From sequence record KY435490: a DNA stretch of 44,246 nucleotides. One strand, written 5' to 3'. Positions 1,719-44,246 of this stretch are shown here, in pieces (the first letter of the stretch is position 1; each line of letters starts with the position of its first letter). A model generated the notes under the pieces. The model was not told the DNA's origin, did no database searches, and saw only the letters and a program-made list of their open reading frames with translations. Made by a program: the position numbers and the translations under genes. Origin of the DNA: Escherichia phage K1E.

Positions 1719-2054
1719 TTACGCACTGACAATGTGTTTACCTAGAATGTAAACATCTACATCTACGTCTATTTCAACTTGTGCTGTATGGAACACATGT
1801 ACTTCTAATCTAGTATCTGACACTTTAGTAATCCAAGCTGTACAAAGTGTAGGTGTACTTAATGATACAAGTGATGCCCACGAAGAATCTAAATCTCCTG
1901 TTGCAGGTACTTCTATCTCAATTTTAGTATCTTCACTTGGAACTACACCTTCAAATGTAACACGCCTTTTAGATAGTAAATTATCCAATAATGTAGCTAG
2001 TACAGTATCTCTATGTAGTAAGCCAGTTGTCTTGGGTTTAGTTAACTTAGCCAT
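1719..2054 (-). CDS. Small protein (111 aa) immediately upstream of the endosialidase; possibly a remnant or N-terminal fragment of a second tailspike
   Basis: Internal ATG at 2054 preceded by AGGAG (track ORF 1719..2114 starts further upstream without an RBS); phage promoter just upstream at 2139..2156. Confidence 0.5.
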   Translation of the reverse strand: MAKLTKPKTTGLLHRDTVLATLLDNLLSKRRVTFEGVVPSEDTKIEIEVPATGDLDSSWASLVSLSTPTLCTAWITKVSDTRLEVHVFHTAQVEIDVDVDVYILGKHIVSA

Positions 2055-2138
2055 ATACTCTCCTATTACTTCCCAATCCTCCCTATGAAGATTGGCTAGT
2101 AATAGGCCGCTCAAAAGAACGGCACTATCTTATCTCTT

Positions 2139-2185: not shown

Positions 2186-2383
2186 TTAATTATACCCGCG
2201 TTCTAGCGAGAGAATGTACAGACCTAATTTTGTAGCGTCAGGCTTACTGAAGCAGACTTTATCGTCCACCTCGTAGACTGCCGTAATCGTCGGCTTCAGA
2301 GGCTTCACCTTTGGATTCTCTGGTAACGCCGTCTGACACCCTGAAGTGATCAGCGAACCAATCAGCAGGATTGTCGCTAGCAT
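2186..2383 (-). CDS. Rz1-like o-spanin (outer-membrane lipoprotein), overlapping the Rz-like gene in another frame
   Basis: Internal ATG at 2383 with GAGG RBS; MLATILLIGSLITSGCQT... has a lipobox (LITSGC) and a Pro-rich mature part. Confidence 0.5.
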   Translation of the reverse strand: MLATILLIGSLITSGCQTALPENPKVKPLKPTITAVYEVDDKVCFSKPDATKLGLYILSLERGYN

Positions 2384-2480
2384 GATTCGCCTCACTTTGT
2401 GCCTCCTTCTCTTCCTTCTTCTTCTTAGCGGCAAGCAGCAGGCCAATAAGACCTGCTACCACCTCTAGCACCTTATTCAC
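2259..2480 (-). CDS. Rz-like i-spanin candidate (N-terminal transmembrane helix)
   Basis: GTG start; MNKVLEVVAGLIGLLLAAKKKKEEKE...; overlaps the lipoprotein ORF as in Rz/Rz1 pairs. Confidence 0.45.
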   Translation of the reverse strand: MNKVLEVVAGLIGLLLAAKKKKEEKEAQSEANHASDNPADWFADHFRVSDGVTRESKGEASEADDYGSLRGGR

Positions 2481-2622
2481 AGGTGATTACTTGGCACACC
2501 ACGTCAGTGACGGAACCTTCCGTACCTTCACCAAAATCTACGCCAAGTCCTACAGAAACAAGGGCAATCACCAGTGCAACCAGTGCACCTACCACCTTCT
2601 TAGACTTAAACAACTTTTTCAT
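2473..2622 (-). CDS. Small single-TM membrane protein (49 aa), holin/antiholin-like, between the endolysin and the spanins
   Basis: ATG at 2622 after AGGGGAG; MKKLFKSKKVVGALVALVIALVSVGLGVDFGEGTEGSVTDVVCQVITCE; below the ORF-track cutoff. Confidence 0.35.
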   Translation of the reverse strand: MKKLFKSKKVVGALVALVIALVSVGLGVDFGEGTEGSVTDVVCQVITCE

Positions 2623-2720
2623 TGCATCTCCCCTTCCATTGAGCTAGCAGGTCCGAGTAGTTCTTCCAGTCATCATAGTTGCCGCCCTCGGCAGCTTGAG
2701 CAACCATGCGCTCACACCAT

Positions 2721-3074
2721 TCAACACAACTTACCATCGCGCACACCCATCTCGTACATCAATGTGAGTGAAGTTTGGTAAGACCCAATGCCATATCTAT
2801 TAGGGTATCGTGCTGTTAGGTAAGACCATACACGATACGGTGTAATACCTTGTACCTTAATATCAGCAGCCTTACCTGTAAGATGCATGGAGTTCTTAGC
2901 TCCACCTACGTTGGCGTTGTGCTTAGCACAGCGATGACCAGAAGTGATAACTACAGGTACGCCAAAATGCTCACGTACATCTGTTACTACCTGTAATAAC
3001 TCAGCATCAACAGTGGATGTACAGCACCCACAACGGCAAGCAAACTCTTTACGCTTGAAGTACTTGTTAAGCAT
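2721..3074 (-). CDS. Endolysin, peptidase M15 family (zinc D-Ala-D-Ala carboxypeptidase / L-Ala-D-Glu peptidase fold)
   Basis: SMHLTGKAAD matches the SxHxxGxAxD signature; internal ATG at 3074 overlaps the upstream stop (TAATAATG). Confidence 0.75.
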   Translation of the reverse strand: MLNKYFKRKEFACRCGCCTSTVDAELLQVVTDVREHFGVPVVITSGHRCAKHNANVGGAKNSMHLTGKAADIKVQGITPYRVWSYLTARYPNRYGIGSYQTSLTLMYEMGVRDGKLC

Positions 3075-3076
3075 TA

Positions 3077-3367
3077 TTAGCCCCCTGCTGGAGTGACAGG
3101 TGCCACCTCCATAGTAGTTGCATCCCACTTGTCAGTTGGTTCACTACCACGTGCAATAGCGATGTACAAGGAGTTGACACCCTTCTCTACAGCAACCATG
3201 GCGCCTTTCTGTTTACCAGATAGGTGTTTAATGTTGATAGGGTGATCTTTCTTCTTAAGGTCTTCTTCAGCAACAATAGGCAGAGGGATTGCCGTTGCAG
3301 TGGTTTGTACAGTTTTTACTCGAAAAGCCTGACCAGTAACAGTACCTGTGTTTCCATATTTAGACAT
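3077..3367 (-). CDS. Hypothetical protein, paralogue B of a tandem pair
   Basis: 96 aa; shares ...SGKQKGAMV...AIA... with the adjacent ORF 3380..3658. Confidence 0.55.
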   Translation of the reverse strand: MSKYGNTGTVTGQAFRVKTVQTTATAIPLPIVAEEDLKKKDHPINIKHLSGKQKGAMVAVEKGVNSLYIAIARGSEPTDKWDATTMEVAPVTPAGG

Positions 3368-3379
3368 GTAACTCTCCTC

Positions 3380-3658
3380 TTAAGCTGGGGTAATAGTAGT
3401 GACCGCTTTATTAGCTGTCAACCAATTGGAATCTTCTTTGCCATCAACTGCGATAGCAATAACCAGGTTATCATGTGTATCAAGACACACCATGGCCCCT
3501 TTCTGCTTACCTGATTTGGTGGCATCATTAATAACATCACCTTTCTTCTCAACAGTATCCTCGTAAACTACAGGAAGCATAAGGGCTTCACTAACAGGTT
3601 GTATCTGCTTACGAGCAGACTTACCTGTAAGAGGTTGTGTACTATAACTATTAGACAT
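3380..3658 (-). CDS. Hypothetical protein, paralogue A of a tandem pair
   Basis: ATG at 3658 preceded by AGGAG(AG)n; 92 aa MSNSYSTQPLTGKSARKQ...; the 5' UTR carries the hairpin GGGTGTAC-tcct-GTACACCC. Confidence 0.55.
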   Translation of the reverse strand: MSNSYSTQPLTGKSARKQIQPVSEALMLPVVYEDTVEKKGDVINDATKSGKQKGAMVCLDTHDNLVIAIAVDGKEDSNWLTANKAVTTITPA

Positions 3659-3802
3659 TCTCTCTCTCTCTCCTATTATGTAAGTATAGTAAGGAAGTAA
3701 GGAATAGGGTGTACAGGAGTACACCCATACTAAGGAATACCTATATAACCTAGGTTAACCTATATTATCCTTGTTATTTCTCTTATTATCTGGGCCTTCC
3801 TT

Positions 3803-3820
3803 CTATAGTGTCCGGTAATT
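3803..3820 (-). promoter_or_regulatory. Phage RNAP promoter (AATTACCGGACACTATAG)
   Basis: Consensus match directly downstream of the terminase large subunit gene. Confidence 0.65.
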
Positions 3821-5717
3821 AATAAGTCCTTGAAATCCTTGCAGAAAGTGTATTTCTGCTTGCCGATTTACTCCTGTAATTCTGACCGTATACTCTTTGC
3901 TGCATAGCCACGGAAGTGTTGGTTACTCTTCGCTCAGTGCCATAATCTCCATAGAGCATTGCCCTACGGAGGTGAGGTGTGTTCATAGCATGGATGTAAT
4001 CGCGCATCTCCTGCGCTCTGAGGCGATTAATCCGTGTAACCTCGTCATAGTCTATCTGAGAAGTTAATTGCCGTATAGCGCCATACAGAGCGTCTAAGCG
4101 GTCATCGTGTCGTAGGCTGTTCTTCTCAATCGTGATGTTCGACATTTGATTGAAAAGGCTGTATGACATGCGTAGTTCAAGCGGATAGTGCTGTACCGAC
4201 TCAAAATCAGACTTGACCATCTCTGCGTTGAAGATGAGCCTGTGGGCCGCCATTAGTGGCTCTAGTGTTTCAATGATACGCAACTCTTTCTGTCCGGTGG
4301 CGTAATCTTCCTCCAGAACCACAGGCCACTCTCGTTCAAAGTATGGCTTTATAACGGCCTCAAACGCGCCATGACCAAAGTTCTTTTCAATGAATACCTC
4401 TTTAACACCTGCCTGCTTTGCGGCCTGCACAATGCGATTCAGGGACGATTCGCGGTATCCTCCCGGCACACCAAAGCACTGATACACATAAATGAATGTG
4501 CCGTGCAGGAAGACGATAGCCACACCCGTTTCATCCCCGTTCTTACCGCCACCCGCAGGGTCAATATACATAATCTTACGGGTAACAGCACCCCATTCAT
4601 AAGGACGGGCTACAGGTCTATACATAAAGTCTGTAGGCTTGTTACCATACTTAGGGGCATCGCCAATGATATTAATAGAATCATTACTCCACGTAGGCAT
4701 CACAGGGACTTCCTCTGTACCGAACGAAGTAAAGATTAGATTGTTTAGACGAAGTGGGTATCTGTCAGCATCCATCATGCGAGTGTTCAGCATAAACTGA
4801 AGCTGGAACTTAGCAGCACCTTGAGAGATTTCCTTCTCAATCAACACGTCATCATCGTACATTTCAGGTGCGCAAGGTGCACCACTGTTACCGTCTAACC
4901 CATAACCAGAGCGAAGTGCTGGGTTGTCTTTCATATCCTGCACAATCATAGGTGCAAGGAAGTCACCATAGCATTGCTCCTGCTCTACTGATGGATAACG
5001 TGCAGTCCAGATACGAACCGAGTAACCACGAGCAGGTAAGTTGTTGTAGATAGAGTTTACGTTCTGAGGAGTACCAAGGTAGATGATATCACCAAACTGG
5101 TTGATAGATTCAAACTCCTTGGTCAACTCCTCAAGCAAGGCACGGCCTGCTGCTGTACGAGCATTCTGCATCGATTCTACGTCATCTGCTAGAATAATAT
5201 CAGCACGAGCACCCTGCATACCTGCTTCGATAGAGTAACAGGATACAGAAGGTGACTTATCGCTGCCGCGTAACGTGTAGTGAATCTCAAATGCTTTGAC
5301 TGATGCACGGTCGCCAGCGTATATGTCCGGTAGCATAAACTCAAGGAAGTCTAGGCCACGGAAGATTTTCACTACCCAACCTGCGATTTCCTCTGCTCGC
5401 TTGGCGTTTTGGGATACTACCATGATACGCTTATGGGGTTCATGGATGATACGGAAAACAGTATAGATTGCTGATAGTGTAGTTTTAGCGATACCACGGG
5501 GCGCTTCGATGAGGCGATATTTATGTCCATAGAATAGAAACTTTAAAATATCGGCCTGCATACGAATCAGATGAGGGTTGCCTGCAATCAAGTTATGGAT
5601 AACTGTATCTGCAAAGAGAAGCAAACCTTCCGCCGTATACGGAAAAGTTTGCTGTAACTCCTGTAGCATCTCCCATCTGGCAAGAGCCTCCGCTTGTGAT
5701 TCTCTTGCCTTAGCCAT
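3819..5717 (-). CDS. Terminase large subunit (T7 gp19-like)
   Basis: 632 aa; ATG at 5717 after GGAGG, overlapping the upstream stop (TGATG); ATPase plus nuclease architecture. Confidence 0.93.
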   Translation of the reverse strand: MAKARESQAEALARWEMLQELQQTFPYTAEGLLLFADTVIHNLIAGNPHLIRMQADILKFLFYGHKYRLIEAPRGIAKTTLSAIYTVFRIIHEPHKRIMVVSQNAKRAEEIAGWVVKIFRGLDFLEFMLPDIYAGDRASVKAFEIHYTLRGSDKSPSVSCYSIEAGMQGARADIILADDVESMQNARTAAGRALLEELTKEFESINQFGDIIYLGTPQNVNSIYNNLPARGYSVRIWTARYPSVEQEQCYGDFLAPMIVQDMKDNPALRSGYGLDGNSGAPCAPEMYDDDVLIEKEISQGAAKFQLQFMLNTRMMDADRYPLRLNNLIFTSFGTEEVPVMPTWSNDSINIIGDAPKYGNKPTDFMYRPVARPYEWGAVTRKIMYIDPAGGGKNGDETGVAIVFLHGTFIYVYQCFGVPGGYRESSLNRIVQAAKQAGVKEVFIEKNFGHGAFEAVIKPYFEREWPVVLEEDYATGQKELRIIETLEPLMAAHRLIFNAEMVKSDFESVQHYPLELRMSYSLFNQMSNITIEKNSLRHDDRLDALYGAIRQLTSQIDYDEVTRINRLRAQEMRDYIHAMNTPHLRRAMLYGDYGTERRVTNTSVAMQQRVYGQNYRSKSASRNTLSARISRTY

Positions 5718-6016
5718 CAATCCTCCTTAGTAAATTGAATAATCTTACCACTGGATGCCTCTCGGATAGCCTTGAGGCGCTTAGATAACTTGGATTCTTC
5801 CTGCTGTGCAGCAGGTGTAGCAGTGATGCCATTATCCAGTACCCACTTACACATAGCACCAATGTCTTTACCAGAGACTAAATGCAGTGCTGCATCTGGG
5901 TCTTCTTCTATAGTGTCCAGTATTGCCTGTGCTTTCTTATTAAAGATTTTGGTAATAGCACCATGCAGGATGCCAACTTCATCCTCTGTAGCTGCATGTT
6001 TATTGTGTACGCTCAT
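5717..6016 (-). CDS. Terminase small subunit candidate (T7 gp18 position)
   Basis: 99 aa, immediately upstream of and overlapping the terminase large subunit; GGGAGG RBS. Confidence 0.6.
   Translation of the reverse strand: MSVHNKHAATEDEVGILHGAITKIFNKKAQAILDTIEEDPDAALHLVSGKDIGAMCKWVLDNGITATPAAQQEESKLSKRLKAIREASSGKIIQFTKED
5908..5925 (-). promoter_or_regulatory. Promoter-like sequence (CAATACTGGACACTATAG) inside the terminase small subunit gene
   Basis: Core -13..+1 identical to consensus; -17..-15 divergent. Confidence 0.35.
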
Positions 6017-6444
6017 GTACGCCTCCCGTTAATCCAGTACCATACGGTCTTGTGGTCTAGTCCGAAATGCCTACCAATTTTAGGGTAAGACCAACCTTCC
6101 TCCCTTAATCGTTTAGCTTCAGCAACCTTGTTGTCAATGTTTAAACAACCATAATGTGCATGTATTGTATTCTCCTGTTGAGTACACCACTCTAGGTTGT
6201 CTTTATGACAATTAGAAGGGTTGCGATCTTTATGGTTTACTATCTTATAATTGTGAGGATTAGGTACGTGCTTCCATGCTACTAATCTGTGTACTTTATA
6301 AGTTTTAGTCTTACCATCAATTCGCAGAGAAACAGTACGGTAGCCTCTTTCTCTGATAGCTCCTGCCAGCCTCTTACCCTTCTTACTTAATACAAAACCT
6401 TCTTCAGTTATGATGTATCCTGCTCTTTCAACTTCTGAATACAC
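6013..6444 (-). CDS. HNH endonuclease
   Basis: ...KIVNHKDRNPSNCHKDNLEW... HNH motif; GTG start with AGGAG RBS; overlaps the holin 3' end. Confidence 0.8.
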   Translation of the reverse strand: MYSEVERAGYIITEEGFVLSKKGKRLAGAIRERGYRTVSLRIDGKTKTYKVHRLVAWKHVPNPHNYKIVNHKDRNPSNCHKDNLEWCTQQENTIHAHYGCLNIDNKVAEAKRLREEGWSYPKIGRHFGLDHKTVWYWINGRRT

Positions 6445-6632
6445 TTCTCTTTTCTCCTCTGTTTTATAGTTCGGGCCTTCTCGTAGATAAACCAGCCCAT
6501 TTGCATAATAGTGTAAATGAGGGTCATAATTACAAGCCAGTTATCCCAACTGATACCGAGGAAGTACCCACCTGAGACTAATGCAGGTGGCGCAAGCTTC
6601 ACACCACTATCTACCAGTTCGGAGTTAATCAT
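6408..6632 (-). CDS. Holin, T7 gp17.5-like (class II)
   Basis: 74 aa; MINSELVDSGVKLAPPALVSGGYFLGISWDNWLVIMTLIYTIMQMGW resembles T7 holin; AGGAGG RBS. Confidence 0.7.
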   Translation of the reverse strand: MINSELVDSGVKLAPPALVSGGYFLGISWDNWLVIMTLIYTIMQMGWFIYEKARTIKQRRKEKCIQKLKEQDTS

Positions 6633-6641
6633 CTCACCTCC

Positions 6642-7604
6642 TTACACTAGTTGTAGCTTCATACTTACGACACACTCAGGTAATGGCTCACTGAAAGTGA
6701 TAGTAGACCCTACGATTTCATAAGCATTATTAGGTTGATACAGGCCATCCAAGTATACATCAAGACGTTGGAAAGCCGTTACAATGTCGATAGATTGTGT
6801 ACCTTCACTCACTGCTTGTGTAAAGAGGATAGTATCCGCACTTGTAGGTGGGGTTAAGCGACTACCGATAAGCACATAAACTTCATCCCCAGCCTGTAAT
6901 GGCTCGGACAGGGTTATAACATTATACCCCACTGATACTGCACCTGCTAGTTCATGCTGGAATACACCGTTTATAAACACCATAGCATCATCAAATGAGT
7001 AAGGTGGTCGAATGATTTGCTCTCCACCGGAGGCGACCATATACCAAGGAATAGTGCGATGAGATACACCAGACACCATTCCTCTCTTAATACCAGCAAT
7101 CTCTATATCTTGTGCAGAGTTCCAATCAGTATGCTTCTTGTCGATAGCATCTAGCTGTGATTTATTTACTGCATCTTTTGGATTCTCACCATCAGCTAGG
7201 TCAGTAATCTTATTGCCGCCCCAGCTTACATTCTGCTTAATGAAGTATCCTTCTGGATAAAACCCATCAAGTAACTCCTGTGTAATCTCCAGTATATGAA
7301 TGAAAGAGCCATTTAAAGACTTCATATCCAAGGTAACACCACGGTCAAACTCAGCGTATGGATATTCCTTTTGTACTTCCCTTCGAATACGGAACTTCAA
7401 ACCTGCAACAGGTGCTACATCAAAAGTGATTTGATGCGTACCAGTTAATTGCCAGCCAGATGTAACCTCAATCCAAGTGTTACCTTGAAGAGATTCCACT
7501 ATCACATCTGAGGCACGAAGATAGCCTTTATCCCTACCAGCAAAGCTAAAGGGATAGGTTACTTGCGTACCGTTGGCTATATGTTCTGTGAAAGTATAAC
7601 TCAT
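6642..7604 (-). CDS. Tail fiber-like adaptor protein (T7 gp17 N-terminal-like) that docks the tailspikes
   Basis: 320 aa at the gp17 position, too short for a full fibre. Confidence 0.75.
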   Translation of the reverse strand: MSYTFTEHIANGTQVTYPFSFAGRDKGYLRASDVIVESLQGNTWIEVTSGWQLTGTHQITFDVAPVAGLKFRIRREVQKEYPYAEFDRGVTLDMKSLNGSFIHILEITQELLDGFYPEGYFIKQNVSWGGNKITDLADGENPKDAVNKSQLDAIDKKHTDWNSAQDIEIAGIKRGMVSGVSHRTIPWYMVASGGEQIIRPPYSFDDAMVFINGVFQHELAGAVSVGYNVITLSEPLQAGDEVYVLIGSRLTPPTSADTILFTQAVSEGTQSIDIVTAFQRLDVYLDGLYQPNNAYEIVGSTITFSEPLPECVVSMKLQLV

Positions 7605-43102: not shown

Positions 43103-43252
43103 TTAAGCAGAAGATGCAGAAGGTTTCTTCAAGGCACGACGTTGTACATCCTTGGCAATGGCGTATGCCTGCTTAGGGTCACGTCCTGATTGAATAAGTT
43201 CTTCTGCGTTCTGGCGTACAGCAGCTTGCTTAACTGATTTTATTAGTGGCAT
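43103..43252 (-). CDS. Possible small basic protein (49 aa) overlapping the last 23 nt of the endosialidase gene
   Basis: ATG 4 nt after GAGGAG; MPLIKSVKQAAVRQNAEELIQSGRDPKQAYAIAKDVQRRALKKPSASSA; below the ORF-track size cutoff. Confidence 0.2.
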   Translation of the reverse strand: MPLIKSVKQAAVRQNAEELIQSGRDPKQAYAIAKDVQRRALKKPSASSA

Positions 43253-44246
43253 ACATCTCCTCTAATTTATCAAGACGATGGCGAGTATAGGCAGCCTCTA
43301 GGATTAGAACTTCACTATATCTCACACCGTACCTACCTTCTTCGAAGGACACAATTCCATACTTAATGGCATCTAACCCTTCATCTTCAAAAGCAGCTAC
43401 AATATCCTGAGCCAAGACACCGAAGTGTATGCTATCAAGGTTCCTCTCTGCTTCACTATTCAAACCATACTGTTTAAAACCAACCCTGCTCCAAGCCTTT
43501 AACACCTTGGTATTAATACTAGAGATACCGTACTTGTGGTCAGCATCTGAAGTTGTAACAGGGTCACTGCCTAGGTAGATGGTAGTGAATCGGTTACTAG
43601 GCCCCCCAGCAGCAAACTGGTTATCTACAGCAGGCATGATTGGTGCACCTTGGAATAGGTGCTCATTTCCGTTATAAGTGATACGCTTAGCCTTACTTGA
43701 ATTAGAGCCGTGCAAAGTTATCTGTGCACCTGAAGAGGACGAAGTCTTTTCTCCACCACAAATAATCAAACGTTGACCAGTTGGGTTGTCCTTTGGAACA
43801 GACTTACCAATAAAGCCATATTCACCTTCCATCTGCACTTCAGATCGTATATTGGAACTTGTGCTTGCTTTAAGTGTTAAGTGTCCAACTTTAGTATCCT
43901 CTGTAACAATGTTATCTGAGAAATACAAAGGTGCAGAGATATTTCGTATTCCATCAGTACCCATGAAAGTAGGTATAGCTTGACCCGGAGTTGCACCATA
44001 TGTAAACTTACGAGATACACGATTGTCATTTGCAATCTGCATCTTATAGCAGTATATATCAGTAGGGTGTCCATGACCTTTAAATGGGTCTTTATCTTTG
44101 TTGTCACCATAAGTCATTGGGTTGAAATGGTTTTCACCACCAAAGATATAGTAAATGTAGCTGTCTTTAACTACAACAGAACCTACACCTACACTAGAGT
44201 TCACAATGTCACCTTGATAGATTTGGTCTGTGATGTTAACCCATTC
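43230..44246 (-). CDS. Endosialidase tailspike, C-terminal part (same gene as 1..1651; 44015..44246 duplicates 1..232)
   Basis: Track ORF 43230..44204 is open up to the window end; frame matches the N-terminal segment after removing the 232-bp duplication. Confidence 0.88.
   Translation of the reverse strand, partial: EWVNITDQIYQGDIVNSSVGVGSVVVKDSYIYYIFGGENHFNPMTYGDNKDKDPFKGHGHPTDIYCYKMQIANDNRVSRKFTYGATPGQAIPTFMGTDGIRNISAPLYFSDNIVTEDTKVGHLTLKASTSSNIRSEVQMEGEYGFIGKSVPKDNPTGQRLIICGGEKTSSSSGAQITLHGSNSSKAKRITYNGNEHLFQGAPIMPAVDNQFAAGGPSNRFTTIYLGSDPVTTSDADHKYGISSINTKVLKAWSRVGFKQYGLNSEAERNLDSIHFGVLAQDIVAAFEDEGLDAIKYGIVSFEEGRYGVRYSEVLILEAAYTRHRLDKLEEMYATNKIS

Follow-up and report, generated by a model that had tools for sequence, protein, structure and literature searches.

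Paralogous genes between terminase and endolysin in a K1E-like podophage encode putative minor capsid proteins

The closest described counterparts of the gene pair analysed here are the proteins gp45, gp46 and gp47 of Kp7, a Klebsiella phage of the Molineuxvirinae. One preprint (bioRxiv 10.1101/2024.05.19.594906) detected them by SDS-PAGE and mass spectrometry of purified virions, and its authors call them minor capsid proteins, where "capsid" is a matter of naming without a published structure. The Kp7 gene order is terL, gp45, gp46, gp47, endolysin, and the GenBank name of gp47 is "minor capsid protein with Ig-domain". Two adjacent paralogous genes for small capsid-decoration proteins are also present in other Autographiviridae (T7-supergroup podophages), namely gp44/gp43 of PhiM1, gp55/gp54 of the phiKMV-like phage Ar-KM, and the pairs of HRP29/Buco. 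These alpha-claw/alpha-paw pairs consist of one bare and one extended protein, have a helix-turn-helix fold, and dimerise into four-helix bundles at 2-fold axes. More distant phages offer further solutions: lambda gpD and T4 Soc are bare trimers added outside an HK97-fold shell, the phi29 gp8.5 head fibre and the collagen-like SPP1 gp12 are trimers that sit outside such a shell and bear a fibre, and T5 pb10 is a monomer at hexamer centres.

The window, by which we mean the whole 44,246-nucleotide stretch that was analysed (sequence record KY435490, Escherichia phage K1E), is 83–95% identical at the nucleotide level to Vectrevirus genomes (ACG-C91, K1E, K1-5 and others), and its phage is a Vectrevirus, a K1E/K1-5/SP6-like podophage of the Autographiviridae, Molineuxvirinae. 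All genes lie on the minus strand. They include an endosialidase tailspike gene, and the phage is thus K1-capsule-specific and K1E-like. The pair follows terL directly and is followed directly by an M15 endolysin gene; the features of this region, in order of transcription, are:

6642-7604: T7-tail-fibre-like adaptor
5717-6016, minus strand: terS
3819..5720, minus strand: terL, large terminase subunit, 633 aa, intact (Pfam PF22530 Terminase-T7_RNaseH-like, E 6e-35; K1E annotation)
3803..3817, minus strand: SP6/K1E-type phage-RNA-polymerase promoter core TACCGGACACTATAG, overlapping the terL end, upstream of the pair
3707..3726, minus strand: 8-bp G+C-rich hairpin GGGTGTAC-TCCT-GTACACCC in the 5' leader, between promoter and copy 1
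3659..3674, minus strand: purine-rich ribosome-binding tract AGGAGAGAGAGAGAGA before the copy 1 ATG, read from the sequence
3380..3658, minus strand: copy 1, orthologue of K1E gp41, 92 aa, ATG start; putative minor capsid/virion-anchor protein
3488..3514, minus strand: SGKQKGAMV core of copy 1, near-invariant in alignments, a low-entropy block
3368..3379, minus strand: 12-nt spacer between the copies with a GAGGAG ribosome-binding site, read from the sequence
3077..3367, minus strand: copy 2, orthologue of K1E gp42, 96 aa; putative minor capsid/virion-anchor protein
3194..3220, minus strand: SGKQKGAMV core of copy 2, conserved in alignments, a low-entropy block
2721..3074, minus strand: M15 endolysin (Pfam Peptidase_M15_3, E 1.3e-28)
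2473-2622, minus strand: holin
2186-2446, minus strand: Rz-like spanin
1719-2114, minus strand: gene 46-like ORF

The two small open reading frames lie exactly where the first-pass annotation had placed them, on the minus strand after the terminase gene, and they are true paralogues. BLASTP aligns copy 1 with copy 2 at 37/94 identities (39%, E 7e-16), and the alignment includes the SGKQKGAMV core and the IAIA strand, the shared residues from which their kinship had been proposed. The Smith-Waterman score of the two proteins is 137 versus 26.4 ± 4.8 for 2000 shuffles (z 23), and z is still 14.6 when the 9-residue core is deleted; the similarity therefore goes beyond low complexity. Both proteins carry the motifs TG...P.V...IN...SGK..G...A.G...W...TP within a full-length profile match, and each matches phrog_2725 (copy 1, E 5e-41; copy 2, E 5.5e-46) as well as our own family profile (E 3e-32 and E 2e-34). 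Copy 1 is identical in protein sequence to K1E gp41 (100%), and copy 2 is 91% identical to K1E gp42. A profile scan of all six frames found no further family copy in the window. The ATG at 3658 is the real start of copy 1, since the purine-rich ribosome-binding tract precedes it and the K1E gp41 annotation agrees; a GTG-started version (3380-3724) was set aside as an artefact of the ORF listing.

No function had been recognised for the pair in the first-pass annotation, and database annotation indeed holds no established one. Instead, the name "acetyl-CoA acetyltransferase" has spread via phrog_2725 to ~150–180 phage records (e.g. NC_007637 PK1Ep55 and PK1Ep56). The name itself, carried by phrog_2725 and copied into RefSeq/GenBank, is the one argument for a thiolase, and there is next to no chance that it is correct. 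Thiolases are ~390 aa proteins with N- and C-terminal domains and need catalytic Cys/His/Cys residues; the copies are 92 and 96 aa, and copy 2 is cysteine-free. Neither copy has a Pfam match of any kind at E≤1, searches of Pfam and NCBIfam yield no thiolase at E≤1, the only NCBIfam match is to GroES and falls below threshold (13.8 bits versus a cut-off of 122), and no PDB sequence matches. The enzyme identity was rejected on length, fold, catalytic residues and Pfam membership alike.

A different identity is suggested by the comparison with Kp7. The K1E gp41/gp42–Kp7 gp45-47 family corresponds to phrog_2725 and is without a Pfam entry; Kp7 gp45, gp46 and gp47 match its profile at E 1.5e-23, 2.2e-28 and 1.7e-19, respectively, and align with the window proteins across the whole module. 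The Kp7 and window proteins share the TG, PxV, IN, SGKQxGA, A.G, W and TP motifs, are tandem paralogues in both phages, and occupy the same slot between terL and endolysin. They differ in that both copies of the window are bare and Kp7 adds a third with an Ig domain; the proteins are only ~43–47% identical, and presence in the virion has been shown for Kp7 only. That presence, together with the outward display domains (Ig, knob and collagen) found on other members, points to a surface anchor on the particle. Our preferred reading, to which we assign a probability of about 0.55, is that the pair encodes small, late-expressed virion accessory proteins that form trimers and dock on the capsid as cement or decoration. 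The pair would then belong to an ordinary structural-gene family, most likely of minor capsid proteins, with its location on the particle inferred from these relatives.

The family is widespread. A profile search of 1.84 billion representative proteins identified 209 members at E≤0.001, and tblastn places the family in 147–184 phage records, with hosts that include Escherichia, Klebsiella, Salmonella, Proteus, Vibrio, Erwinia, Pectobacterium and others. One further candidate, the 794 aa protein P0266 with eight "stretches", proved to consist of consecutive Ig-like repeats and was discarded as a false positive. Genes of the family lie immediately downstream of terL, and usually upstream of an endolysin gene, at all 20 of the 20 phage and metagenome loci examined. 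Copy number in related phages, a comparison suggested by the first reading of the pair, ranges from one to three in a six-frame profile scan of 20 loci:

One copy: Vp670, phi-A318, ECBP5 and vB_Kp_Z1
Two copies: all Vectrevirus examined except CrRp3 and Sem2; also phD2B, Era103 and 15E36.1
Three copies: SP6 (the third truncated), POP72, CrRp3, Kp7 and K44PH129C1

The module itself is found in four architectures:

Architecture 1: a single module of 80–100 aa, as in the window
Architecture 2: a chain of ~260–300 aa with three tandem modules, the form (~270 aa) seen in many relatives
Architecture 3: an N-terminal module followed by a display domain
Architecture 4: a knob protein encoded separately beside a single family gene, in ECBP5

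Triple-repeat genes of the second type (P0185 and P0186) directly follow terL. Among members of the third type, P0278 and Kp7 gp47 carry an immunoglobulin I-set domain similar to the C-terminal Ig domain found in decoration proteins (5lxk and 8zvi; E 1e-16 to 1e-17), P0263 (E 1.7e-30) and P0318 (E 5e-43) carry an Sf6-type tail-needle knob (PF16532), and in L024 the module is followed by ~14 collagen-like G-X-Y triplets and then another domain. Other members are fused to uncharacterised domains of 150–350 aa (P0255, P0259, P0296, P0325, CrRp3 cds16, Era103 gp48 and K44PH129C1 LOCUS5). The ECBP5 knob protein (L015, 1347-1958) is 203 aa long, matches PF16532 at E 1.4e-44, and is encoded between terL and the family gene.

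These fusions invite comparison with known head decorations. Like T5 pb10, the extended family members consist of a small N-terminal anchor and an exposed Ig domain, and the Ig domain of Kp7 gp47 matches that of the decoration protein in PDB 5lxk at E 2.8e-16, a structure we take to be the pb10 C-terminal domain. The pb10 anchor is unrelated to the family module both by sequence (no PDB match) and by fold search, and pb10 is monomeric whereas the family is apparently trimeric. The collagen-like helix of L024 recalls SPP1 gp12. In its proposed working the module resembles gp8.5, gp12, gpD and Soc as they are generally known, with no sequence or fold similarity detected to any of them. The alpha-claw/alpha-paw pairs, which parallel the window pair in gene arrangement, appear to be an independent solution with a different fold, since the window family is beta-rich and apparently trimeric.

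The same fusions can also be read as parts of a tail. Knobs, collagen-like segments and fibre-like repeats characterise tail fibres no less than head fibres, and the main rival to a capsid location, which we consider unlikely, is that the proteins are structural but reside on the tail or neck, where the module would attach whiskers or accessory fibres and the bare copies would occupy their docking sites or regulate them. Consistent with this, the partners include the Sf6 tail-needle knob, collagen-like segments and tail-fibre-like repeats, the P0318 gene directly follows a tailspike gene, and a "neck whiskers" protein and tail proteins (9occ and 9c2d) are among the matches to the Ig domain of Kp7 gp47. 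In addition, PDB 7y3t, the one capsid solved for a close relative, has a major capsid protein that matches that of the window at E 2.6e-175; the entry lists major capsid protein chains only, with no family chain among its chains with sequence. On the other side, the authors who call the Kp7 homologues minor capsid proteins have cryo-EM data on Kp7, bare 90-aa modules would be of no obvious use on a tail, and the fibre sites of the window phage are taken by the T7-tail-fibre-like adaptor. A literature search found no cryo-EM paper on a Molineuxvirinae capsid, and the PP99 and Nifs112 papers are without virion proteomics.

The AF2 model of copy 2 (gp42), built with 89 homologues, is of moderate confidence (pLDDT 73) and predicts an unstructured N-terminal arm (residues 1-25, pLDDT 52–61); the small, beta-rich domain after it comprises a beta-hairpin, one more strand and two short helices. 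The triple-repeat protein P0183 is modelled with higher scores (pLDDT 90.2, pTM 0.86), which suggests that its three modules are packed in one defined arrangement rather than as beads on a string. Searched against all PDB chains, the family profile returned nothing at E≤10, and a fold search gave no relation to known decoration proteins (gpD, Soc, Dec, pb10-N and alpha-claw); the predicted fold is without a close solved counterpart and is apparently new. Within orthologue groups there is hardly any variation in the arm (residues 10-30) or the IN..SGKQKGAMV block (41-60), and variation is highest in the hairpin loop (61-67) and C-terminus (82-92), as would suit a protein with one face conserved for docking and another exposed.

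A trimeric state is suggested by the relatives, in which the module is joined to obligatorily trimeric elements or repeated three times in one chain. TNF-like knobs and collagen helices are obligate trimers, and disordered arms of this kind commonly become ordered on assembly. The knob and collagen fusions, the compact triple repeats, the occurrence of up to three paralogues per genome and the disordered arm all point in this direction. Under the preferred capsid reading, each protein would comprise a conserved, intrinsically extended N-terminal arm (residues ~10-30) and a compact, beta-rich domain, ~55 residues long, that is centred on the motif IN..SGKQKGAMV...A.G....W..TP. The module would oligomerise, most likely as a homo- or heterotrimer, and the trimer would dock on the outside of the T=7 capsid via the conserved arm and core, with the hairpin loop (61-67) and C-terminus (82-92) pointing outward. 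Once docked, it would act as a cement or decoration protein, the "minor capsid protein" of the Kp7 authors, and may serve in stabilisation or adhesion. In other phages this module would anchor an outward Ig domain, TNF-like knob or collagen-like fibre; in the window phage both copies would be bare anchors.

The pair has a phage-type promoter of its own, which would suit late expression. The promoter pattern TA(C/G)NNGACACTATAG has 12 minus-strand matches in the window versus 1.45 expected by chance (at 2139, 3803, 5908, 19097, 24177, 27344, 28490, 29258, 32784, 33631, 35942 and 39945). One match lies just 5' of the major capsid gene and one just 5' of the pair; the latter, at 3803..3817, is conserved in the metagenomic relative L021. 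Promoters of this SP6/K1E type precede many late genes, and here the promoter is accompanied by strong ribosome-binding sites and a hairpin in the leader. The hairpin at 3707..3726 is a terminator-like match, forms part of the minimum-free-energy fold of the leader, and is conserved in L021; the fold of the leader as a whole is not unusually stable (z -1.6). In Vibrio phage phi-A318 a terminator, "Tphi-2", is annotated at the equivalent place. The hairpin may be a leaky terminator, an RNase III-type processing site or a 5' stabiliser.

At the other end of the pair, the endolysin ATG (3074) begins 2 nt past the copy 2 stop (TAATAATG), an arrangement that probably reflects co-transcription and translational coupling and that has the same form in L021. 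This ATG is almost certainly the real endolysin start, as in K1E and L021; the ORF list gives a GTG-extended form (2721-3128, minus strand) that would overlap copy 2 by 52 nt. The position of the pair, wedged between the terminase gene and the endolysin-holin-spanin cassette, and the coupling of the endolysin start to the copy 2 stop would also suit non-structural late proteins that aid packaging, head maturation or lysis and are not retained in the virion, and virion data for Vectrevirus itself were not found. We regard such a role as quite improbable. Homologues were detected in purified Kp7 virions, Ig, knob and collagen-like fusions would make no sense on a cytoplasmic assembly or lysis factor, and the proteins have neither a transmembrane segment nor similarity to any lysis or packaging family.

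The first-pass annotation had taken the pair for a recent tandem duplication, and this dating does not survive comparison of the copies. First, DNA identity between copies is only 47–57% (~57% for the window pair). Second, dS between copies (Nei-Gojobori) is 1.1–2.5 in ten phages and is thus saturated. Third, in a neighbour-joining tree of the family module from 14 phages, the gp41-type copies of the window, K1E, K1-5, CrRp3, K44PH129C1 and SP6 form one clade (84% bootstrap) and the gp42-type copies of the same phages a second (92%); Era103 shows an independent duplication (92%). Since copies group by position across genera, the duplication predates the split between Vectrevirus and Zindervirus, and on these distances and groupings it is both real and ancient. 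The dN/dS comparison that had been proposed for the pair gives an orthologue omega of 0.15–0.44 for both genes, which indicates purifying selection.

The suggestion that the pair marks a rapidly evolving accessory locus holds in part. Both genes show purifying selection, and practically every Vectrevirus genome has retained the pair. Between genera, copy number (one to three) and architecture differ, with C-terminal extensions, a chimeric gene and a frameshifted copy, and relative to K1E the C-terminal half of gp42 lies in a recombinant mosaic patch; the locus is thus plastic. A recently duplicated, fast-evolving locus with, for example, a host-interaction or anti-defence role could draw on the one to three copies, the chimera, a frameshifted copy, the mosaic patch and the variable loops. 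It is nonetheless very improbable in view of the saturated dS, the orthologous clades across genera, the low omega and the conservation of the pair across 147–184 phage records, and the PADLOC defence models gave no match.

Recombination has nevertheless left traces within the pair. Two metagenome contigs from independent samples (L021, 1632-1919; L022, 1023-1310) carry, between terL and endolysin, a single chimeric gene with the N-terminal half of gp41 and the C-terminal half of gp42, joined exactly at the conserved core. The chimera is an apparent unequal-recombination deletion that turned the pair into one gene; identical runs between the paralogues at the joint are only 8 nt, which makes collapse by the assembler unlikely, though coverage is low. 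The window is 99–100% identical to K1E through gp41 and the first half of gp42, and a mosaic patch (window 2500-3300) then follows, from the gp42 core through the endolysin and holin genes, in which identity is 71–93%. The patch is flanked by sequence of 99–100% identity, and its left breakpoint lies near the gp42 SGKQKGAMV core. Recombination joints, between paralogues as well as between alleles, thus fall at the conserved core. In vB_Eco_Sem2 (L019, 1627-1979) the gp41 orthologue is split over two frames, which may reflect a frameshift or a sequencing error, and the gp42 orthologue is intact.

It is conceivable, as a tentative extension of the capsid reading that we would hold with considerable doubt, that the ~90-aa module has an undescribed fold and serves as a universal socket, trimeric and arm-exchanging, for head add-ons in SP6-like, Colwellvirinae and Gajwadongvirus podophages. 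The bare paralogues would then heterotrimerise to cement the shell, and the core would double as a recombination joint at which arm and head halves are swapped between alleles or paralogues.

Sequencing of K1E, K1-5 and SP6 brought the genes into GenBank, where they are still listed without a function or under a wrong enzyme name. Many of the affected phages are therapeutic candidates against K1 E. coli, Klebsiella, Salmonella and Proteus, and reassignment of the proteins to the virion surface would correct an error that could raise needless "metabolic gene" flags in phage-therapy safety assessment. A small, surface-exposed and fusion-tolerant module could also serve phage display or capsid engineering in T7-supergroup phages, and its apparently new fold would join the polyphyletic set of capsid accessory proteins. 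The finding does not open a long-standing question.

Several further observations concern the window as a whole. It is circularly permuted inside the endosialidase tailspike gene, which occupies 43230-44204 and 1 to ~1650 (both minus strand). The C-terminal part of the tailspike (End_tail_spike and the S74 chaperone domain) lies at the right end of the window; the N-terminal part must continue past the left end, and this accounts for the absence of a long ORF at 1 to ~1650 from the ORF list. Between the T7-type holin-like gene (6408-6632) and terS (5717-6016), and overlapping both, lies a 143-aa homing-endonuclease-like ORF with HNH_3 and HTH domains (6013-6444, minus strand). In K1E, genes 38 and 39 overlap directly with no gene at this site, and the window ORF thus looks like a mobile insertion. 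Conversely, terL of K1E (L001) is split by a ~746-bp insert with the homing endonuclease gene 40.5 (L001 4864-5397), and at the counterpart of this site in the window (~4500-4600) terL is uninterrupted. Towards 4600-5800, identity to K1E drops from 99–100% to 86–95%, the pattern that co-conversion around such a homing site should produce.
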